Assembly: GCA_964414345.1 (NCBI GenBank)
Contig: CAYPWF010000010.1
Span: 7,115-71,114, forward strand
Length of the DNA stretch: 64,000 nucleotides
Reading direction: 5' to 3'
Source: an uncultured Desulfarculaceae bacterium
GTDB lineage: Bacteria; Desulfobacterota; Desulfocorpusculales; Desulfocorpusculum
The notes beneath the pieces were generated by a model. The model ran no database searches and was not told where the DNA came from. It saw nothing but the letters and a program-made list of their open reading frames with translations. The translations under genes were made by a program, and so were the position numbers. This document shows, in pieces, positions 1,244 to 61,994 of this stretch (positions within the stretch are counted from its first letter, which is position 1; every line of letters starts with the position of its first letter).

Positions 1244-1441
1244 TAGCCCGCATTATTCACGATGAGTGGGTAATGCGGGGTATCTTAGTGAGATGTTAGG
1301 GCAAACAGGCCCGTACTCCAAGAACAGGCTGATTTTTGATTTCAGATTTGGAGCTGGTTTGAGCCGGGATATATTCAAGTGTACCGGGGGTTTGGGGGCG
1401 TAGCCCCCAAAGTAATAGGCTTTGGAGAATAATCCGAGCTA
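1244..1441 (+). repeat. Copy 1 of the ~196-bp structured intergenic element (complete); starts 116 nt after the aconitase stop, co-oriented
   Basis: TAGCCCGCATTATTCAC..GTGGGTAATGCGGGG 5' hairpin, internal TTGGGGGCgtaGCCCCCAA hairpin, 3' terminus GGAGAATAATCCGAGCTA. Aligns with copies at 11121, 12298, 22880, 44665, 61765 and others. Confidence 0.9.
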
Positions 1442-1485
1442 GGTCAAGGTGCCAGAGGACTCACAACCAAAAGGGGAGGTGCACC

Positions 1486-3047: not shown

Positions 3048-5001
3048 GGGCTTGGCCGGGCAGGAAGTCGAGACCATCTCCAAGGAGGAGTTGGAGAAGA
3101 TCCTCCAGAAGGTGGACCGGGAGGCTTCCACCCGCAAGCTTTGGGGCGTCCCGCGCTGGATAGTCTACGTCATAGGGGTGGGCTGGTCTGTCTTTCAGGT
3201 CTACACGGGCGCCTTCGGTCTTTTACCTGCCCAACTCCAGCGCTCCATCCACCTGGCCTTTGCCTTTGCACTGGCCTACCTTCTCTACCCAGCCAGGCGA
3301 TCCAAGGGCTCTGGCCGGCTCCAGTGGTATAACTGGCTCCTTGCGGCCTTTGCCGTGTATGTCGGCCTTTACATGGCCATCAACTACACCCGGATCATGG
3401 AGGCGGGGGGGGATTATTCGAGCACGGATTACATCTTTGCAGGGTTGGGGATCCTGTTCACACTGGAGGCTGCAAGAAGGGTGGTGGGCCTTCCCATCAC
3501 CATGATCGCCCTGTGTTTCCTCGTTTACGCTTACTTCGGGCCCTATTTCCCGAGCTTTCTGGCCCACAGGGGCTACTCCCTAGAGCGCATAGCCTCCCAC
3601 ATGTACCTCACCACAGAGGGGATCCTGGGCATTCCCCTAGGGGTGGCGGCCACCTTTATTTACGTGTTCGTGCTCTTCGGCTCCTTTAGGGAAAAGACAG
3701 GACTCGGGCAGCTCTTCATAGACATCTCCAACGCGGTTGCCGGGTGGGCCTCGGGGGGGCCGGCCAAGATGGCCGTGGTCACAAGCGCCCTGGAGGGGAC
3801 CGTGTCCGGAAGCTCGGTGGCAAATACCGTGGAATCCGGGAGCCTCACCATCCCCATGATGAAGAAACTGGGTTACAGGCCAGAGTTTGCCGCGGCAGTG
3901 GAGGCCTCCTCTTCCACTGGCGGCCAGATAATGCCCCCCATCATGGGGGCTGCGGCCTTTATAATGGCCGAGTTTCTCAACATGCCTTACCTGGACATAG
4001 CCAAGGCTGCGGCCATCCCGGCCTGTCTTTATTTTTTCGGGGTCTTCATGGAGGTGCACTTCGAGGCCAAAAGATGCAATCTCAAGGGCTTGAGCAGGGA
4101 TGAACTGCCCAGGTTCGGCCAGGTCATGAGGGAGAGGGGCCACCTCTTCTTCCCCCTGATAGCCATCATCACCTTTCTTTCAGCGGGCTTTACCCCGCTT
4201 TACGCCGCCTTGATGGGGCTTGCGGTCTGCGTGCTGGCAGGAGCCCTGAGAAAATCCACTCGCATGAGCCTCAGGGAGATAGCAGACGCCTTCGAGCTGG
4301 GGGCCAGAAACGCGGTGGGAGTCGCCCTGGCCTGCGCCTCGGCGGGGATCATCATAGGGGTTGTGACCCTCACAGGGCTGGGGCTCAAGCTGGCCAACGG
4401 GCTGGTGGAGCTGGCAGGAGGGAACCTTCTTTTCACACTCTTCTTCACCATGATCACTTCCCTGATCCTGGGCATGGGTGCCCCCACCACGGCCAACTAC
4501 ATCATCACCTCAACCATTGCGGCCCCTGCTGTGATACTGCTGGGTGTGCACCCCTTGGCAGCTCATATGTTCGTTTTCTACTTTGGGATCGTTGCGGACA
4601 TAACCCCGCCCGTGGCCCTGGCAGCCTACGCCGGCTCCGGGATCGCCAAGTCAGATCCCATGAAGACCGGCATCACATCCACGAAGCTGGCCATAGGGGC
4701 TTTCCTGGTCCCCTACATCTTTGTGTACAACCCATCCATGCTGATGGTGGGCACAACGGCACTGGGTCTCATCCAAACCCTGATCACATCATGTTGCGGG
4801 ATGACGGCCATAGGGGCCTCCATGATCGGTTTCTTCTTGGCCCCTATGAGCTGGTGGGAAAGGCTCCTGTTCTTCGGGGGAGGCCTCATGCTCATAGACC
4901 CTGGAACAGCGACGGATGCTGCAGGGTTGGGTCTGCTTGGCCTTGGGGCCCTGTACCAGTGGTCCAAGAAGAGAAAGCACAGGGCTCAGCCCATCTGCTG
5001 A
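3004..5001 (+). CDS. TRAP transporter fused permease (DctQ-DctM fusion, TAXI type)
   Basis: 665-aa polytopic membrane protein immediately downstream of the TAXI SBP; typical DctM-like C-terminal half. Confidence 0.85.
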   Translation: MSQEKDTGDKGQPVEGLAGQEVETISKEELEKILQKVDREASTRKLWGVPRWIVYVIGVGWSVFQVYTGAFGLLPAQLQRSIHLAFAFALAYLLYPARRSKGSGRLQWYNWLLAAFAVYVGLYMAINYTRIMEAGGDYSSTDYIFAGLGILFTLEAARRVVGLPITMIALCFLVYAYFGPYFPSFLAHRGYSLERIASHMYLTTEGILGIPLGVAATFIYVFVLFGSFREKTGLGQLFIDISNAVAGWASGGPAKMAVVTSALEGTVSGSSVANTVESGSLTIPMMKKLGYRPEFAAAVEASSSTGGQIMPPIMGAAAFIMAEFLNMPYLDIAKAAAIPACLYFFGVFMEVHFEAKRCNLKGLSRDELPRFGQVMRERGHLFFPLIAIITFLSAGFTPLYAALMGLAVCVLAGALRKSTRMSLREIADAFELGARNAVGVALACASAGIIIGVVTLTGLGLKLANGLVELAGGNLLFTLFFTMITSLILGMGAPTTANYIITSTIAAPAVILLGVHPLAAHMFVFYFGIVADITPPVALAAYAGSGIAKSDPMKTGITSTKLAIGAFLVPYIFVYNPSMLMVGTTALGLIQTLITSCCGMTAIGASMIGFFLAPMSWWERLLFFGGGLMLIDPGTATDAAGLGLLGLGALYQWSKKRKHRAQPIC

Positions 5002-6335: not shown

Positions 6336-6556
6336 AGCCAATTATTCACCCCAGAGCATGGCCGGAATTATTCGTGAAGGCCCGGGAGATCGGGGCTACA
6401 CCCCCACGAGCCCCAGGTACGCTTGGAGATATTCCGGCTCAAAGAAAGGCCAAATCTGAAAAAGAAAATCAGAGGGTCTTGGGGCATGGATAGGTTTTTC
6501 CCAATATATCCTCAAGGCAGCAGGCAGGATCCACTCATCGTGAATAATGTGCGCCA
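6336..6556 (-). repeat. Degenerate copy of the structured element, lying in the upstream/5' region of citrate synthase
   Basis: GGTACGCTTGGAGATATTCCGGCTCAAAGAAAGGCCAAATCTGAAAAAGAAAATCAGAGGG aligns with the reverse-orientation consensus. Arm-like motifs AGCCAATTATTCAC, GCCGGAATTATTCGTGAA and TCGTGAATAATGTGCGCC are present. Confidence 0.6.
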
Positions 6557-10195: not shown

Positions 10196-10322
10196 AGCCC
10201 TCATTACTCAAGCTCAGTGTATAATGCGGCCTGTCTCAAGGATATTAGGAGAAACCGGTCCAGGCTCAAAAACACCCTGACTCTCTGTGTCAGACTCGGC
10301 CCTGGCTCGGCTCGGAACATAT
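10196..10322 (+). repeat. 3'-truncated copy of the structured element, starts 61 nt after korC stop, co-oriented
   Basis: AGCCCTCATTACTCAAG ctca GTGTATAATGCGGCCT hairpin followed by GAAACCGGTCCAGGCTCAAAAACACCCTGA...GAGTCGG... homologous to the consensus 5' half. Confidence 0.65.
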
Positions 10323-11120: not shown

Positions 11121-11298
11121 TAGCCTGCATTATTCAGGATGAGTGAATAATACGGGCTATCTTATTGATGTATTTTGATAAGCCGGTCTGTGCTCAAAAG
11201 CACCCTGATTTTGGTTTCCAGATTTGATCCTGCTCTGAGTCGGAATATGTGGAAGTGGACCGGGGGCTTGGGGGCTTGAGTCCCCAAAGTTACGGGCT
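11121..11298 (+). repeat. Copy of the structured element (3' end truncated by ~20 nt)
   Basis: TAGCCTGCATTATTCAGGATGAGTGAATAATACGGGCT ... GCTCAAAAGCACCCTGATTTTGGTTTCCAGATTTGATCCTGCTCTGAGTCGGAATATG ... CTTGGGGGCTTGAGTCCCCAAAGTTACGGGCT. Confidence 0.9.
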
Positions 11299-11458
11299 GT
11301 ACAGGAGGCATGGCCCTACTGCCCTTCTTTTGCGAAACTCGCTCCCTTTAAAGTAGCGCAACTCGGCTTGCACAAGCCTGAAAGGACCAGACCCCGAGGG
11401 GAGCATCCCACGGGGTCTTGGGTTAAAAAGGAACCGCTGAAATCAGCAGAAGGAGTTT

Positions 11459-11534: not shown

Positions 11535-11748
11535 TCTGAGCAGTTCCTAAAGCACCAATCCTAGTCAAAATTTTATACCAGAGGGCACCTCGCTTGTAAA
11601 GCCCGGCACATCTTTCTGTTCTCAGCATGTGAAATGCCAGGTGGGCCTTAGAAGGCATCTGTCCGCTTTCTTTAAGCCATCACCCTGTGACCGCACACGC
11701 TTTTTTACAATGAGGGGGTAGGCAAGGCTTGAGGTAGCACGCCAAAGC

Positions 11749-11812
11749 GTACGAGGGGTTTGGGAGGGGCGTAACCCCCGTACTCAAAGGCTTTGGAAAA
11801 TAATCCTGGCTA
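11749..11812 (+). repeat. 3'-terminal fragment (~64 nt) of the structured element
   Basis: GTACGAGGGGTTTGGGAGGGGCGTAACCCCCGTACTCAAAGGCTTTGGAAAATAATCCTGGCTA matches the consensus 3' end including the GC hairpin. Confidence 0.8.
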
Positions 11813-11937: not shown

Positions 11938-12300
11938 ATGATGGGGCTTGAGGAATTGAGGCAGAGAAAGGACATACTGGTTCAGATCGACTGGGAGCTC
12001 ACCCCCCTTGAGGCAGTGGAGATGTTCGATCACAGGACCGGGGGTTTGAAATCAAGGCTGCAGGTGAGAAGTTACAAGGAGAAGCATTACTTTTTTTGTG
12101 TCGACAATTGGCGGGAAGAGCCACGCTTGGTTCTCAAGGAGCGCTCCATAAAGGAATCCAGGGTAATAGCTGAGGTCTGCGCCCCAAAAGAACTCCTTCA
12201 GGAGTGCATCTTGCAATACGGCGACCGCCAGGGGCTTTTCCCCCCAAGCGAGGCCTTGAAAGAGTGGTTGAGAAAAAATCTTTTCTACCAGAACCCTTAG
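11938..12300 (+). CDS. Hypothetical protein (~120 aa), lower GC, orphan
   Basis: ATGATGG start 6 nt after GGAGG. The ORF track begins at TTG 11842, but the ATG with RBS is preferred. No recognisable domain. The stop codon TAG is the first three nt of the downstream element copy. Confidence 0.5.
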   Translation: MMGLEELRQRKDILVQIDWELTPLEAVEMFDHRTGGLKSRLQVRSYKEKHYFFCVDNWREEPRLVLKERSIKESRVIAEVCAPKELLQECILQYGDRQGLFPPSEALKEWLRKNLFYQNP

Positions 12301-12495
12301 CCCGGATTGTTCTCCAAAGCCCTTAACTTTGGGGGCTCAAGCCCCAAAGCCTCCGGTACACTTCGCGACATTCCGACTCAAAGCAGGACCAGATCTGAAA
12401 CCAAGAATCAGGGTGCTTTTGAGCATAGACCGGCTTCTCAAAACATCTCATTAAGATAGCCCGCATTATCCACTGATCCTGAATAACACGGGCCA
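12298..12495 (-). repeat. Complete copy of the structured element (sense strand = minus), starts 46 nt after the cNMP-binding gene stop, co-oriented
   Basis: Reverse complement gives GGCCCGTGTTATTCAGGATCAGTGGATAATGCGGGCT...CTCAAAAGCACCCTGATTCTTGGTTTCAGATCTGGTCCTGCTTTGAGTCGG...CTTTGGGGCTTGAGCCCCCAAAG...GGAGAACAATCCGGGCTA. Confidence 0.9.
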
Positions 12496-15232: not shown

Positions 15233-16714
15233 TCACACTCTCCAGACTTCTCTTACGGCCAAAGCCGTCAGGTCCAAAAGCACACCAGGGAAAAAGAAAA
15301 GCAGCACGCAGCCCAACGCTGTAACAAGGGGAGCCCAGGTGCAAAGGGAAGAAAGCTCCGGCAGCCTCTCAGTGGGTTCCCCCTTTGGGATGGGCAGAAA
15401 AAAAGCCTTATAAACCACAGGCATCAGATACGCCGCGTTTAGAAGAGAACTCAGCAAAAGGACCATGAGGGGCACTGTCTGCTCGGTTGCCACGCAGCCT
15501 AGGGCCAGATACCACTTGCTCAGGAACCCGGCCAAGGGAGGTACCCCCATAATGCTGAGGGAGGCTGCCAAAAAGGCTCCCATGGTCAGGGGCATACGTC
15601 TTCCGATACCGTGCATTTGGCTTATGCGCTGCTTTCCCGTTGCCACGTACAGGGCCCCGGCGCAAAAAAAGAGGCTTATTTTCCCAAGAGCATGAGTGGC
15701 CAGATGGGCCATTGCTCCCTGAAGGCCCTCTGGGCTGAGCAAAGCGCCCCCCAGGATTATGTATGAAAGCTGGCCCACCGTGGAATAGGCCAGCATCCTC
15801 TTGAGCCCGTCTTGGCAAAGGGCTGCAAGGGATGCCGCCACCATGGTTGCAGCTGCCAGAGCCAGAACCAGGGAATCCAAACCGCTGGAGCCAAGCAGTT
15901 CCAGTCCGAAAATCCCTGCTAGAACCCTAAGAATGCTGAACACTCCCACTTTTACCACCGCCACCGCATGCAAAAGCGCGCTTACAGGCGTGGGGGCCAC
16001 CATGGCAGCTGGAAGCCAGCCGTGAAAGGGCATTATTGCCGCCTTTGCGAAACCGAAGAGAAACATCAGGAGCAAGGTTGCCAGCTCCAGGCCCGAGAAC
16101 CCAGCCTGTTTCAATATGCCATCCGGAACAAAGTCCAAGGTGTTTGCCGCCCCGTAACACACCAGCATGGCCGGCAGCACAAGCCCAATGGATCCCCCAA
16201 CTATGTAAAGAAGATACCTGCGCCCCGCACTCCTGGCCTCCGGATCCTGGTGGTGAGTCACTAGGGGATAGGTGGCAAAAGATAGAAGTTCATAGAAGAG
16301 GTAGAGAGTCAGGAGATTCGCCGAGAAGGCAACCCCTAGTGTGGAGAAAAGGGCCAAGGCGAAATAGCAGTAATAACGGGTTTGGCCGTGCTCCTTGAGG
16401 CCCCTCATGTATCCTATGGAGTAAAGGGAAGTCACGATCCACAGGCTGGATGAGATCAAGGCGAAGAGAATACCCATCGCATCTACTCTAAAAGCAATGG
16501 GGACTCCCGGGAAAACTTCCGCCACCTGGAAGAAGAGATTCTCTCCCCCTAGAACGCTTGGTAGCATGCTTAGCACCAAGGCCAGCTTTGCCAGCCCGGC
16601 CGCCAGGGTCCAGCCTTCCCTCACGTCAGGGGAACGGGCTGAAAGCAGCAAGGGAACAACACCGAGGGATGCCCCCACAGCCAAGAGGGGAAGTGTGGAG
16701 TTCACGTCGGCCAT
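15233..16714 (-). CDS. Mrp antiporter subunit D-like (NuoN/MrpD family), second copy
   Basis: 493-aa NuoN/MrpD-type membrane protein. Confidence 0.75.
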   Translation of the reverse strand: MADVNSTLPLLAVGASLGVVPLLLSARSPDVREGWTLAAGLAKLALVLSMLPSVLGGENLFFQVAEVFPGVPIAFRVDAMGILFALISSSLWIVTSLYSIGYMRGLKEHGQTRYYCYFALALFSTLGVAFSANLLTLYLFYELLSFATYPLVTHHQDPEARSAGRRYLLYIVGGSIGLVLPAMLVCYGAANTLDFVPDGILKQAGFSGLELATLLLMFLFGFAKAAIMPFHGWLPAAMVAPTPVSALLHAVAVVKVGVFSILRVLAGIFGLELLGSSGLDSLVLALAAATMVAASLAALCQDGLKRMLAYSTVGQLSYIILGGALLSPEGLQGAMAHLATHALGKISLFFCAGALYVATGKQRISQMHGIGRRMPLTMGAFLAASLSIMGVPPLAGFLSKWYLALGCVATEQTVPLMVLLLSSLLNAAYLMPVVYKAFFLPIPKGEPTERLPELSSLCTWAPLVTALGCVLLFFFPGVLLDLTALAVREVWRV

Positions 16715-16729
16715 GGTTCAGCCTTACCT

Positions 16730-18220
16730 TCAAGAAAAAGTAAGAGGGATCACAGGCTCCACGATGCCCGAGACGATCTGCCCGCTGAAAACACCCAGAG
16801 CCACCAGCCCCCCCGCTACAAGCAAAACCGGCACCACCATCTGCACCGGGGCCTCCTGAAAGGTGTGGGAGAGATGGTGCTCTGCTCCTTCATTCTCCTG
16901 GGCGCTGAAAAAGGCCCATTCAAACACCCGGAAGAAAAGCACCACGCCCACCAGACTGCTAAATATGAGAGCTGCCAAGAAACCGTAATGCTCTGCCTCC
17001 AATGCACCCAGAAGGAGGTACCACTTGCTGAAAAAGCCGCAGGTAGGCGGCACTCCCACTATGGAAAGGGCCGTTGCCACAAGGGCTCCCATGGTAAAGG
17101 GCATCTTGGAGAAAGCTCCCTTCAACTCTGGAAACGAGCAGCCAGGAAGCCTATAAAGAAGATTTCCTACAGCCAAGAAAGCGCAAAGGGTCATGAATAT
17201 GTCGTTGAGCAAATGCAGGACGGCCCCTGTCATGCCGCTTTTGTTGCCCAGCCAGAATCCCCCCACCATGTACCCCACCTCTATGAGTATCACGTAGGTG
17301 AGCATTCTTTTTAGATCCTTTTGGGCCAAGGCCATGATGGAGCCCATTATGACCGCCAACACCGCAAGCCACATCACTGCCTTTTCAAGACCCAGTTTTT
17401 CAAAGGAGTAAACCGGGCCGAACACATTCAGGTCAATCCTGATCATTACATAGACCATTACCTTGGTCATAAGGGGAGCGATCAAACCGCTGATAGGGTA
17501 AGGGGCGTGGGTGTAAGCATTGGGAAGCCAGCCATGAAGGGGGAAAAAGGCCATCTTCAGCCACAGTCCCACCATTGTTATGATGAAGGCCACCAGGATG
17601 GCCCTCGAGCCATGAAGACCTGTGATCAGGTGGGCCAGGTCAGCCATGTTCAAGGTGCCGGTCATGATGTAAAGATAGCCCACTCCCAAGAGATAGAAGC
17701 AGGCTCCCAAGGTGCCCATGAAAACGTAATTCAGGCTTGAGAGGGAAGCCCTCTCAGGGCCCATGGCTATGAGAGCATAAGCGGTTATGGAGGCTATCTC
17801 CAGAAGCACATAGAGATTGAAGGCGTCTCCTGTGACGGTGATGCCGAGAAGGCCTGTCACAAAAAGCATCTGCAAGCCGTACAAGGCCCCCAACCTGTCC
17901 TGGAAATGGCGCTTCACACTGGGGCCGGACCAGATCCACTGGATTAAGGCGGACAAGGAAACCGCCGCCAAGACCATGCCGTTTAGAGTGTCCACCACGT
18001 AAACTATTCCCCATGGGGCTTCCCACCCGCCCAGTTTGTAAGTCACGGGGCCCCACCTTATGACCCTGAAAAGTAGGCCGATGCAGCTTGAGGCAGCAGT
18101 TGCCAGCCCAAAGAGCCCCACAGGGAAGCACAGATCCTTCCTGAGCCAACCCAATGCGAAGACCAGGAAGGAGGTAAGAAGGGGCACTACTACGATGAGG
18201 GCGGGCAGGTGCTCTTTCAT
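16730..18220 (-). CDS. Mrp antiporter subunit D (NuoM/N-like)
   Basis: True start MKEHLPALIVVVPLL overlaps the mrpC stop (ATGA). The upstream His/Gly-rich extension shown in the ORF track is read-through into mrpC in another frame. Confidence 0.75.
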   Translation of the reverse strand: MKEHLPALIVVVPLLTSFLVFALGWLRKDLCFPVGLFGLATAASSCIGLLFRVIRWGPVTYKLGGWEAPWGIVYVVDTLNGMVLAAVSLSALIQWIWSGPSVKRHFQDRLGALYGLQMLFVTGLLGITVTGDAFNLYVLLEIASITAYALIAMGPERASLSSLNYVFMGTLGACFYLLGVGYLYIMTGTLNMADLAHLITGLHGSRAILVAFIITMVGLWLKMAFFPLHGWLPNAYTHAPYPISGLIAPLMTKVMVYVMIRIDLNVFGPVYSFEKLGLEKAVMWLAVLAVIMGSIMALAQKDLKRMLTYVILIEVGYMVGGFWLGNKSGMTGAVLHLLNDIFMTLCAFLAVGNLLYRLPGCSFPELKGAFSKMPFTMGALVATALSIVGVPPTCGFFSKWYLLLGALEAEHYGFLAALIFSSLVGVVLFFRVFEWAFFSAQENEGAEHHLSHTFQEAPVQMVVPVLLVAGGLVALGVFSGQIVSGIVEPVIPLTFS

Positions 18221-22159: not shown

Positions 22160-22693
22160 CTATTCCTCCGGGAAACCAAGACTTTTTCTCAACTCCACCA
22201 CCGCGCTTCTCAAAGCCTTGGCCCCTAGGCCCGCTTTGGTCAGCTCTTCCAGTCTACGGTCGAATTCCCTTTGGCGGGCTTCCATGGCCCGAACAAAGGC
22301 CCCCTTGACTGCCTCCAGAAGCACCCCGTAATCAGCCGGCTTGAGAAGGTACTGGAAGGCGTCCTGCTTGCCGCTCTCCAAAGCGGTCTGAATGGAGCCG
22401 TGGCCCGTGAGCACGATGCATTGTATAAAGGGCTGGAGCTGCTTCAGCTTCCTTTGGGTCTCAACACCGTCCATGCCCGGCATTTTGAGATCCACCACCG
22501 CCACGTCAAATGCCTGCGCGCGTGCTATCTCCAGAGCCTTTTCCCCGGACTCCGCCGTAAGTACTGAAAAACCCTCGCGCACAAGTCTTTTGGAAAGATA
22601 CTCCAAAAGCGTGCCTTCATCGTCTATCAACAGAACTCTGGCGGCCGGATCCACTTTTTCCCCTCCCCTTCCTAACCCGCACATGAACAACAA
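22160..22693 (-). CDS. Response regulator receiver-domain protein (CheY-like, no obvious output domain)
   Basis: VLLIDDEGTLLEYLSKRL...DVAVVDLKMPGMDGVE receiver motifs. Confidence 0.8.
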   Translation of the reverse strand: MLFMCGLGRGGEKVDPAARVLLIDDEGTLLEYLSKRLVREGFSVLTAESGEKALEIARAQAFDVAVVDLKMPGMDGVETQRKLKQLQPFIQCIVLTGHGSIQTALESGKQDAFQYLLKPADYGVLLEAVKGAFVRAMEARQREFDRRLEELTKAGLGAKALRSAVVELRKSLGFPEE

Positions 22694-22879
22694 TCAAAGG
22701 TTGATACGAGCCAGCTTAGAATCCTGAAGAGACAAACTCATTCCTCATGAAACTCAGCTGAATCTTGGGCTTCGGGCCCGGCCGATCTTTTAACCTCAAA
22801 GGGCCCAATGTGCCGGTGTTTGGGGCTCCAGCCCCTAAGGCCAGCGCTTTGTCAAAAAATTCAGCCCCATCAGCTGAGC

Positions 22880-23076
22880 TAGCCCGGATTATTCTCCAAA
22901 GCCCGTAACTTTGGGGGCTACGCCCCCGAACACCCGATGCACTACTATATATTCCGACTCAAAACAACACCAAATTTGAAATACAAAGGCAGGGTGCTTT
23001 TGAGTATGGACCGGTTTGTTCAAACATGTCATTAAAATGGCCCGCACTATCCACTGCGCGTGAATAATGCGGGTTG
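22880..23076 (-). repeat. Complete copy of the structured element downstream of atpC (co-oriented)
   Basis: TAGCCCGGATTATTCTCC...CTTTGGGGGCTACGCCCCCGAA...GACTCAAAA...GGGTGCTTTTGAG...GCCCGCACTATCCACtgcgcGTGAATAATGCGGGTT. Confidence 0.9.
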
Positions 23077-23095: not shown

Positions 23096-23135
23096 GGAAA
23101 CGCAAAGCGCCCTGGATGTCAACTCCTGAGGGCGC
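23096..23135 (-). terminator. Probable rho-independent terminator of the atp operon
   Basis: GCGCCCU-loop-AGGGCGC followed by UUUGCGUUUCC on the minus strand, 30 nt after the atpC stop. Confidence 0.5.
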
Positions 23136-23165
23136 CCGATTCACGACTCATTTAAAGATTCTATT

Positions 23166-44644: not shown

Positions 44645-44664
44645 GCTTGGCGGCCCTCCAGGCC

Positions 44665-44862
44665 TAACCCGGATTATTCTCCAAAGCCCGCGACTTTGGG
44701 GGCTCAAGCCCCCAAGCCCCCGATACACTTCGACATATTCCGACTCAAACCAGGACCAGCTCTGAAGAGGAAAACAATAGTAATGTTGAGTGCATACTAG
44801 TTTAACCAAGCATGTCATTGAGATAGCCCGCATTATGCACTGATCGTGAATAATGCGGGCTA
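44665..44862 (-). repeat. Complete copy of the structured element downstream of the PocR-like gene (co-oriented), convergent with alaS
   Basis: TAACCCGGATTATTCTCC...CTTTGGGGGCTCAAGCCCCCAAG...GCCCGCATTATGCACtgatcGTGAATAATGCGGGCTA. Confidence 0.9.
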
Positions 44863-46703: not shown

Positions 46704-46756
46704 CAACCCGGATTCTTCTCCAAAGCCCTTAACCTTGGGGGCTAGGCCCCAAAATC
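46704..46756 (-). repeat. 3'-terminal fragment of the structured element, ending 9 nt upstream of the Tat-protein ATG
   Basis: CAACCCGGATTCTTCTCCAAAGCCCTTAACCTTGGGGGCTAGGCCCCAAAATC matches the reverse-orientation consensus terminus plus GC hairpin. Confidence 0.7.
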
Positions 46757-56812: not shown

Positions 56813-58577
56813 GGACAAGATACTGGATGCGCCCATAGGCCTGGACGCAGAGGTCCTTGGGGGAAAAGACTTGGGGCCTCTTTCCCCCAGACAGCACTCC
56901 AGCAAAAAGAAAAAAGGGCGGGCTAAGGGTGCCTGGATCCTGGTGGGTTTCTTGCTGGGGGTGGGAGTGGCAGGATTTCTTTTTTGGGAGCTCACCCCCA
57001 GAACCAAAACTGTTTCCAGAGGTGCTCATTCTAGCTCGCTTTTTTCTTATCCGGTCCAGGGAATCAGGGTTCAGAGAACAGGGTCGGACAAAGGGGACGC
57101 GCAAGGCCAAGACTCCTCGGTGCTTTTGAGGGAGCAGACCCTGCGGGTGCGCTATGGGAAGGAAACCGTGAGGTTTGTCTCCGTAGAGCGAGACCCTTCG
57201 ATTTGGGCCCGCATGCTGACGGTGTTCTTGAGCCCGCCCAGATTGTATTTTGAGGGCAGTGTTGTGGAGCCAGGCCAGGACCTCATGGCTGCTACGGCTC
57301 CTGAGAGGAGCCTCACTTATGAGCTTTCATTGAAGAGCCAGCCCGGCGCGGCACCCCTTGCCCGATTTTTCCTGGAGCTGGAGATGAGCGCTGAGACCTG
57401 GGCCGCCAGGGCAAAGCAGCTCAAGGAGCCCCAGGCCCAGAGGGCATGTCTGGAGCAGGCCCTGAAGGCGGAGCCGGGCAACGTGCATGTTCTGTTGGCT
57501 TTGGGGAACCTACTTTGGGAACAAAACGAGCCCTTGGCGGCAGCCGAGAGGTTCGAGGAGCTGCTAAAGCGCTCCCCAAAGCGCAAAGAAGCTGCAGCAG
57601 CCCTTGCCTCCATCTACCAGAAATCCAAGCCCAAGAGGGCCCTGGAGATGTACAGGCTGCTTAGCGAGATAGACCCGGATCGTAGAGTTGAGCATCTCAG
57701 GCAGATGGCCGAACTCCAAGAGCGTCTCGGGATCTCCCCGGTTGAGACCTACAGGAAGATCCTGTCCCTCAAGAAAAACGATCCGGACGCCCAAAGGGGC
57801 CTTGACACACTTTATGCCAAGCAGGTGGAGAAGGCCCAGCAGGCTGAAAAAAAGGGGGAACTCTCCCAGGCCGTCCAGCAGATGAAGCAGGCTTTGGAGC
57901 TTCATCCCACCAAGAAAGGGAAGGCCTATCTGGCTACTCTTCACAACAACCTGGCATACTCCTTAGCCAAGCAGGGCAAGTACAAGGAGGCCATACCTCA
58001 CTATGAGGCATCTCTGAAGCTGGAAGAAAGCGCCGTCACACACTTGAACTTGGCTGATGCCTACGCCAAGACCAAACAAATCGACAACGCTCTCAAGAGC
58101 TTGGAGAAGGCCTGGGGCATGAAACCCAAAGAGCAAGAGGTGGTCAAGAATCTCCTTTTTCTTTGGGCCGAACTACTCACCCAGAAAAAGGATCTTCACG
58201 GAGCCATAGCCAAGCTCAAGGAACTGCACGCCAGGTTTCCAAAGGATCCGGAGGCGGCCAAGATGCTGGCGGCAGCCTACTGGAATCAGAAGGATTTGGC
58301 CAAGGCCCTGGAAGTGCTCAAAAAGGTGCCTCAGCTTATGAGTTCGCACCCACCCAAGGCAAGGGCCGAGATCCACGGTATGTTGGGGGACCTGTACAGG
58401 GCCTTGGGAGATCAGGAAAAAAACGTTAAAGGCCGCATATCCCGTTATGACGAGGCGCTAAAAGAGTACAAGGCGGCTTTGGTCTTGAACAAAGGCGACA
58501 CTCAGATTCAAAAAAAGAAGGAAGAGCTGGAAAAGGAACGAATGGCCCTGGTGAAACGCTCCCTTAGAGCCTCCTAA
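56781..58577 (+). CDS. Tetratricopeptide-repeat protein with N-terminal TM anchor
   Basis: N-terminal TM helix then multiple TPR units; stop codon TAA coincides with the first nt of an element fragment. Confidence 0.7.
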   Translation: MRRTKVPPLDEDKILDAPIGLDAEVLGGKDLGPLSPRQHSSKKKKGRAKGAWILVGFLLGVGVAGFLFWELTPRTKTVSRGAHSSSLFSYPVQGIRVQRTGSDKGDAQGQDSSVLLREQTLRVRYGKETVRFVSVERDPSIWARMLTVFLSPPRLYFEGSVVEPGQDLMAATAPERSLTYELSLKSQPGAAPLARFFLELEMSAETWAARAKQLKEPQAQRACLEQALKAEPGNVHVLLALGNLLWEQNEPLAAAERFEELLKRSPKRKEAAAALASIYQKSKPKRALEMYRLLSEIDPDRRVEHLRQMAELQERLGISPVETYRKILSLKKNDPDAQRGLDTLYAKQVEKAQQAEKKGELSQAVQQMKQALELHPTKKGKAYLATLHNNLAYSLAKQGKYKEAIPHYEASLKLEESAVTHLNLADAYAKTKQIDNALKSLEKAWGMKPKEQEVVKNLLFLWAELLTQKKDLHGAIAKLKELHARFPKDPEAAKMLAAAYWNQKDLAKALEVLKKVPQLMSSHPPKARAEIHGMLGDLYRALGDQEKNVKGRISRYDEALKEYKAALVLNKGDTQIQKKKEELEKERMALVKRSLRAS

Positions 58578-58612
58578 GCCGCATTGTCCACTGATCTTGA
58601 ATAATGCGGGCT
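58575..58612 (+). repeat. 5'-hairpin-only fragment of the structured element wedged between TPR gene stop and tRNA-Pro 3' end
   Basis: TAAGCCGCATTGTCCACtgatcttGAATAATGCGGGCT; 2 nt separate it from the tRNA-Pro 3' terminus. Confidence 0.75.
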
Positions 58613-59974: not shown

Positions 59975-60115
59975 CTGCTCAAAATCAATACTCAAAAGCA
60001 CCCCGCCTTTGGGTTTCGGATTCAATCCTGCTTTGGGTCGGAACATGTGCAAGTGTACCGGGGGCTTGGGGGATTGGCCCCCAAAGTTGCGGGCTCCAGA
60101 GAATAATCCGGGTTA
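59975..60115 (+). repeat. 5'-truncated copy of the structured element immediately after plsY (co-oriented)
   Basis: ATACTCAAAAGCACCCCGCCTTTGGGTTTCGGATTCAATCCTGCTTTGGGTCGGAACATGTGCAAGTGTACCGGGGGCTTGGGGGATTGGCCCCCAAAGTTGCGGGCTCCAGAGAATAATCCGGGTTA. Confidence 0.85.
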
Positions 60116-60184
60116 GAGATATGGAGACCCAGACATTGGCTGGAATGGGTAAAGGAGAATCTGGGGGTTTTTGAGGTATGGGGG

Positions 60185-61724: not shown

Positions 61725-61764
61725 AACAAGAATCTCCCAGGGGGCAAGGACGGTCACTCATGAT

Positions 61765-61960
61765 TAGCCCGCATTCTTTACGCTTAGTGGATAATGCGGG
61801 CTATCTTAATAAAATATTTGAATAAACTGCTCCATACTCAAAAGCAGCCTGATTTTGGGTTTTAGATTGGGTGCTGCTTTGAGTAGGAGTATATGGAGAT
61901 TTTCCGGGTGCTTGGGGCCTAGCTTCCAAAGTTACGGGCTTTGGAGAATAATCCGGGCTA
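61765..61960 (+). repeat. Complete copy of the structured element 40 nt after hisF (co-oriented), convergent with the radical SAM gene
   Basis: TAGCCCGCATTCTTTACgcttaGTGGATAATGCGGGCTATCTTAAT...ACTCAAAAGCAGCCTGATTTTGGGTTTTAGATTGGGTGCTGCTTTGAGTAGG...GCTTGGGGCCTAGCTTCCAAAGTTACGGGCTTTGGAGAATAATCCGGGCTA. Confidence 0.9.
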
Positions 61961-61994
61961 AGGCGGCTGGTCACGAGGGTGATGGGGTTGAGGG

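Follow-up and report, generated by a model that had tools for sequence, protein, structure and literature searches.

Downstream of hisF, at positions 61765-61961 on the plus strand of the 64-kb window (the whole stretch of DNA that was analysed), lies a full-length copy of a repeat of about 198 nt (nhmmer E of about 2e-59). The initial annotation had assigned the element at 61765 to a multi-copy repeat, and an nhmmer search of the window with a profile built from six of its copies bears this out, recovering 12 full or partial copies. Pfam matches on the flanking ORFs agree with every gene named in that annotation. The copies are listed below, followed by the parts of the hisF (focal) copy.

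1244..1442, plus strand: full copy in the spacer between acn (plus) and an NMT1-like gene (plus), with CTAG on both sides; co-oriented and orientation-informative
6358..6556, minus strand: full but diverged copy, with citrate synthase (minus) 90 nt downstream of it; it sits in a divergent spacer and is therefore outside any 3' UTR
10196..10322, plus strand: partial copy (5' two-thirds), with korC/POR gamma (plus) 60 nt before it
11121..11301, plus strand: near-full copy without the 3' end, in the spacer between korC and tRNA-Asn (minus)
11744..11812, plus strand: 3'-end fragment
12297..12495, minus strand: full copy in a convergent spacer, with the cNMP-binding gene (minus) 45 nt before it
22878..23075, minus strand: full copy with atpC (minus) 90 nt before it and a response-regulator gene (minus) downstream; informative and co-oriented
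44664..44862, minus strand: full copy in the convergent spacer between alaS (plus) and a PocR-domain gene (minus), with TTAG on both sides
46705..46754, minus strand: 3'-end fragment; its spacer, with a DUF3108 gene (minus) on one side and YdjM (plus) on the other, is divergent
58576..58612, no strand assigned: solo H1 mini-element of about 33 nt in the spacer from the TPR gene to tRNA-Pro, consisting of nothing but two inverted end motifs
59985..60116, plus strand: partial copy (3' two-thirds), with plsY (plus) 27 nt before it, in a convergent spacer with an NYN gene (minus)
61764..61961, plus strand: focal full-length MITE copy after hisF, core at 61768-61957; the insertion is common to the ortholog in locus L124
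61765..61803, plus strand: H1 of the focal copy, made of the 5' terminal repeat R1 and an inverted internal copy, R2
61828..61891, plus strand: H2 palindrome of the focal copy, ACTCAAAAGCAGC...GCTGCTTTGAGT
61909..61957, plus strand: degraded H3 of the focal copy, then H4 (CCAAAG...CTTTGG), then the 3' terminal repeat R3 (GAATAATCCGGG)

The core of the element is about 190 nt long and is bounded by imperfect terminal inverted repeats of about 13 nt, CCCGCATTATTC...GAATAATCCGGG. The 5' repeat CCCGCATTATTC and CCCGGATTATTC, which is the reverse complement of GAATAATCCGGG, are identical at 11 of 12 positions, and the window contains the 12-nt end motif CCCGSATTATTC 17 times where 0.6 would be expected. 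Within the element this motif is present a third time, inverted and adjoining the 5' end, with which it forms the long H1 hairpin; H1 is two transposon ends placed back to back. The solo H1 at 58576-58612 has an ortholog (L124:6049-6085) flanked by TTAG, and there are shorter variants (L139:2661, L182:1097, L162:9718 and L164:3778) that keep the same 5' end motif while their interior is different or deleted, the end motif being fused straight to H3 in one of them. Together, the TTAG-flanked solo H1 and the same-ended variants indicate that the ends behave as a mobile unit. The solo H1 may therefore be an independently mobile mini-element instead of a remnant, and to judge by their sequences the shorter variants look like sister MITE families of one transposase.

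The 4-mers just outside the element ends follow the pattern YTAR, which is the target that IS5 duplicates (PMC5009759). Left and right 4-mers are the same in 40 of 89 copies, where 5000 permutations give 13.4, with a maximum of 24; this agreement sits at the variable YTAR positions 1 and 4. The element thus has a 4-bp YTAR target-site duplication, an IS5-type target. Many of the duplications are imperfect, including the focal one, where TTAG (61764-61767) faces CTAA (61958-61961) in what is a degraded duplication. No motif beyond the Y at position -1 was found in the flanks. Two empty sites complete the picture: L160:12838 has a single TTAG where L183:572-768 carries the element, and in a sister lineage (L197/L198) whose atpD is 95% identical, the spacer between atpC and the response-regulator gene is 94 nt long and lacks the element. 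Being short, non-coding and dispersed, with inverted ends, a target-site duplication and presence/absence polymorphism, the element is a MITE (a non-autonomous DDE transposon). Searches of 724 kb for orphan end motifs and for inverted end pairs 0.6-3.5 kb apart gave no autonomous element with matching ends, and the 10 candidate ORFs enclosed by end motifs were ordinary host genes by Pfam, with no transposase among them. With no autonomous partner in the 724 kb, the IS family is assigned solely from the target-site duplication.

These 724 kb comprise the window, the atpC loci and 82 metagenome-contig loci matching a 25-base pattern. They hold 176 non-overlapping nhmmer matches, which correspond to 139 distinct insertion sites after de-duplication, and 91 distinct full-length copies were aligned. 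The aligned copies have a median pairwise identity of about 75% and vary in length through indels; from base counts, the element has about 48% G+C and is not A+T-rich. The repeat is a high-copy one in an uncultured Thermodesulfobacteriota lineage of hot-spring-type metagenomes, represented in both JGI and ENA data. When genome contigs were scanned with a 17-base pattern, almost all other matches were due to chance, and one genuine partial copy was found at the end of a contig from a Desulfarculaceae MAG (L062:1-59, CAZOXN010000064.1) that has nothing else in common with the 724-kb set. Since this copy is in a different MAG, the family reaches past one species and breaks short-read assemblies; MITE copies explain MAG contig breaks at their sites. 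Viral contigs contained no copy of the element. At the gathering threshold, Rfam reported two tRNAs only in the whole window and no match to the element, and a scan of the element at E<=1 gave no match either. A literature search with the element end sequences returned nothing relevant. The MITE family was thus found neither in the literature nor in Rfam as searched, and in this sense is previously undescribed. A clean description of its ends, target and variants helps annotation in this uncultured thermophilic lineage.

The initial annotation listed eight pairs of upstream gene and element (acn, korC, cNMP, atpC, PocR, TPR, plsY and hisF), and all eight are indeed co-oriented; the distances from stop codon to element in these pairs are 0-115 nt, in line with its statement that most copies start about 120 nt or less past the stop. 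Its wider claim, that every copy with an assignable upstream gene is co-oriented, is true of the listed copies but omitted those in divergent spacers at 6361 (minus) and 46705 (minus). Six of the window copies lie in convergent spacers, where either orientation matches a neighbour, so that they say nothing on orientation, and only the copies at 1244 and 22879 are orientation-informative in the window. Genes were called with a codon-usage caller made for this analysis, which agreed with the JGI calls at one locus (L105), and the orientation set consists of the 123 sites that have a called gene on each flank. Between same-direction genes, 55 sites are co-oriented and 17 anti-oriented (p = 8e-6); the other sites are in convergent (37) or divergent (14) spacers. 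The bias with respect to flanking genes therefore holds metagenome-wide, at a weaker 3-4:1 or so (76-80%), and becomes significant only with the metagenome-wide set. Co- and anti-oriented copies stand at 41:10 (flanking-gene score of at least 30) and at 20:2 when the flanking genes are confident calls, at 40:14 in single-element spacers, and at 39:12 and 11:3 in two large samples.

Convergent spacers are enriched about threefold over their 10.7% share, and divergent ones are rare. The median distance from stop codon to element is 80 nt, and the bias does not clearly change as this distance grows. Canonical terminators between stop and element are few in this organism (9/65 upstream, 4/52 downstream). 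Within the window, orientation tracks the local gene strand, being plus at 1244, 10196, 11121, 59985 and 61765 and minus at 12298, 22879 and 44664, which means that it is not a replication-strand effect. As the target is symmetric and the flanks carry no further motif, the most likely origin of the bias is selection acting on inserted copies, not the insertion step itself.

Co-orientation with flanking genes at 55:17 and the 80-nt median distance would also be expected of a structured sense RNA module in the 3' UTR of the upstream gene, acting as a stabiliser, a processing site or a source of sRNA. There are precedents in ERIC, REP and Correia sequences, which are co-transcribed and act on mRNA stability (PMC3184786). 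Such a module is nevertheless unlikely here. The sense RNA is indeed the more stable one: its folding energy averages -71.5 kcal/mol against -60.1 for antisense and is the lower of the two in 88 of 91 copies. However, when the focal copy is compared with its dinucleotide shuffles, the sense strand (MFE -73.6, shuffle mean -53.6 kcal/mol) and the antisense strand (MFE -55.2, shuffle mean -37.7 kcal/mol) have z-scores of -4.90 and -4.62. The shuffles reproduce the energy gap of this copy, which consequently stems from the 55% G+T composition of the sense strand and not from structure.

The mismatches in the helices lead to the same conclusion. The initial annotation had taken strand-specific wobbles and compensatory changes to imply a function as single-stranded RNA. 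The G:U wobbles that it cited do exist, and on the sense strand the T15:G28 wobble of H1 is fixed in 78 of 91 copies, but mismatches are not mostly G:U on one strand: over the four helices of the 91 distinct copies, G:T occurs 133 times and A:C 129 times (p = 0.85), a count from which the two to three consensus-fixed wobbles, such as T15:G28, are excluded. Measured per site from the consensus, C>T, G>A, A>G and T>C substitutions occur at similar rates, a strand-symmetric pattern, and no signal of a transcription-linked mutation asymmetry was seen when C>T was compared with G>A by context. RNAalifold applied to the 91 copies predicted only H4 (7 pairs, -3.7 kcal/mol), so the helices used for counting were delineated manually. 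Their cells are paired in 84.6% of cases, compared with 83.4% in shuffles. Double changes affect 43 cells (27.4 in shuffles, with 0 of 500 reaching 43), and the small covariation measures are above all 500 shuffles. This modest surplus favours an RNA module, but about 555 cells are unpaired, and some of the double changes in H1 (CCGGATT/AATCCGG) merely make both arms match the form found in the 3' end repeat. The GCAGC/GCTGC extension of H2 cited for the hisF copy exists, but covariation is weak across the family. That the H3 stem is kept while its loop varies was correctly described: pairing in the stem reaches 94%, and the loop comes in two variants. Co- and anti-oriented copies have similar HMM scores (p = 0.58) and are equally intact. 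With mismatches symmetric, z-scores equal on both strands and most substitutions breaking pairs, a function as single-stranded RNA does not follow from these features. The symmetric decay of both strands indicates that the hairpins are palindromes handed down from a master copy, not RNA helices under selection in each copy. Wobbles on one strand and a better fold of one strand can both be products of base composition and inherited palindromes, and here the question was settled by a simple count of G:T against A:C and by shuffle z-scores for both strands.

The genomic positions also argue against an RNA module: the element is nearer the co-oriented gene of a convergent spacer no more often than the other one (17 vs 20), and the 14 divergent-spacer copies and the lack of any Rfam match even at the relaxed threshold point the same way. 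At the atpC locus, a terminator-like hairpin with a T-rich tail lies at about 23096-23137 (minus strand), between the atpC stop codon (23166) and the element (23075). In the sister lineage the matching place (L197:~4880-4925) is likewise occupied by a hairpin, whose stem differs in a compensating manner (GCGCCCT/AGGGCGC vs AGCCCTTCG/CGAAGGGCT). This hairpin looks like the operon's own terminator, with the MITE, absent from the sister lineage, located beyond it. At the hisF locus, the element diverges faster than its surroundings: it differs from its ortholog (L124:9417-9613) at 27 positions (86% identity), compared with about 93% identity for the flanking 120 nt, and the H1 changes between the two are uncompensated. 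Conservation of orthologous copies is mixed over the three usable pairs, the element at the PocR locus having no mismatches between flanks that are 90-96% identical.

Two side observations concern neighbouring DNA. The sister lineage also lacks the stretch of about 190 nt (about 22690-22875) that separates the atpC element from the response-regulator gene, and within it CCTTAGGGGCTGGAGCCCCAAACACCGG resembles the antisense H3 region; from this resemblance, it is possibly the remnant of a second, inverted copy. Elsewhere, in the Mrp antiporter cluster, an 89-nt direct repeat with 71% identity (15507-15595 and 17016-17104) falls in two adjacent long ORFs, which are probably paralogous Proton_antipo_M subunits unrelated to the element.

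Even less probable than the structured RNA module is a mobile module for transcription punctuation, in which sense H1 with a U-rich tail would terminate transcription and a sigma-70-like promoter would restart it toward the downstream gene, polarity then giving rise to the bias. In the atpC copy, H1 followed by CCATTTTAAT scored as terminator-like, and 25 of 91 copies carry at least 5 T within the 8 nt that follow H1. A sigma-70-like match on the sense strand (ATGACA, 18 nt, then CATACT or TATACT) is found at one alignment column in 35 of 91 copies, compared with 5 scattered promoter-like matches on the antisense strand, and in the -10-like hexamer the A at position 2 and the T at position 6 are at least 90% conserved. 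However, the promoter-like and terminator-like motifs are both weak consensus matches, most copies fail the scan rules (the focal copy fails the one for terminators) and the U-tract is interrupted. A sense terminator within operons would moreover be harmful instead of favoured, and the orientation bias is alike in short and long native spacers. The promoter-like motif itself (ATGAnA, 18 nt, yATACT) spans alignment columns 47-76, or 61808-61838 in the focal copy.

IS200/IS605 elements are not known to have either a target-site duplication or terminal inverted repeats. Descent from such a single-strand DNA transposon (as a PATE), or an orientation set by the replication strand, would account for the subterminal hairpins and for an orientation bias with a G+T-rich sense strand, but is hardly credible given the clear 4-bp duplication and terminal inverted repeats, the strand-symmetric mismatches and an orientation that flips with the local gene strand.

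The best reading overall, in which we have good confidence, is that of a non-autonomous DNA transposon (MITE) with palindromic hairpins, whose orientation is filtered after insertion. From the anatomy, a DDE transposase supplied in trans would bind the ends, insert the element into YTAR and duplicate 4 bp, as IS5 does. Inserted copies decay symmetrically on both strands and survive mainly downstream of genes. Antisense-oriented copies could be the more harmful ones when they are read through or fire: their C/A-rich and poorly folded transcript is plausibly prone to Rho-dependent termination, and the promoter-like motif of the element would face back into the upstream gene. The sense transcript, G/U-rich and strongly folded, would be tolerated. 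The bias is best read as selection acting against antisense insertions where a spacer is transcribed. Of the two explanations offered by the initial annotation, orientation-dependent selection on a MITE thus fits the evidence, while an RNA-level element acting in one sense is unlikely. A transposon whose target is symmetric, yet whose copies are biased 3-4:1 in orientation, offers a usable natural experiment in the filtering of insertions by transcription. One could go further and suppose that the family has been co-opted, or at least selection-filtered, as an orientation-dependent transcript-end module, in which the G/U-rich, folded sense RNA would shield upstream mRNAs, or H1 and the promoter-like motif would insulate adjacent transcription units, antisense copies being purged via polarity or pairing with sense copies. 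We regard this extension as doubtful; if true, a selfish MITE would be shaping 3'-end architecture genome-wide.

Among known systems, the IS5-group ISs and the MITEs derived from them come closest. They share with the element the 4-bp YTAR duplication (CTAG/TTAG/CTAA/TTAA; PMC5009759), short terminal inverted repeats and a preference for non-coding DNA. The element differs from this group in its third, inverted copy of the end motif, and no transposase partner was found for it in the 724 kb. IS5 ends start with GG, whereas those of the element start with CC, so that a different family with 4-bp duplications, for example IS1380 or IS701, is also possible.

REPs, units of 20-40 nt mobilised by a Y1 transposase, are not known to duplicate their target site, whereas the element has inverted terminal repeats and a duplication. 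The two are alike in being enriched in convergent spacers, at least as REP placement is summarised where Tobes and Pareja are cited (in PMC3184786). SPRITE sequences contain terminator-like hairpins (PMC10969869), a feature that is weak in the element. The Chunjie MITE of Geobacter uraniireducens, a former deltaproteobacterium, is of a similar kind: it is 178-235 bp long, has very stable predicted RNA folds and lies between operon genes (PMC3184786). However, Chunjie has 21-bp terminal inverted repeats and 9-bp direct repeats and is A+T-rich (PMC3184786), whereas the element has inverted repeats of about 13 nt, a 4-bp YTAR duplication and about 48% G+C. Finally, the ERIC (or IRU) sequences of enterobacteria are MITE-like, about 100-200 nt long, located at gene 3' ends, co-transcribed and folded into long hairpins, and they affect the upstream mRNA in an orientation-dependent manner (PMC3184786). 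They have no sequence relation to the element and belong to another host phylum, and experiments have demonstrated their effect at the RNA level (an RNase E site), where the element offers an orientation bias alone. By analogy with these systems, an ERIC- or REP-like role at the RNA level is possible for the element.
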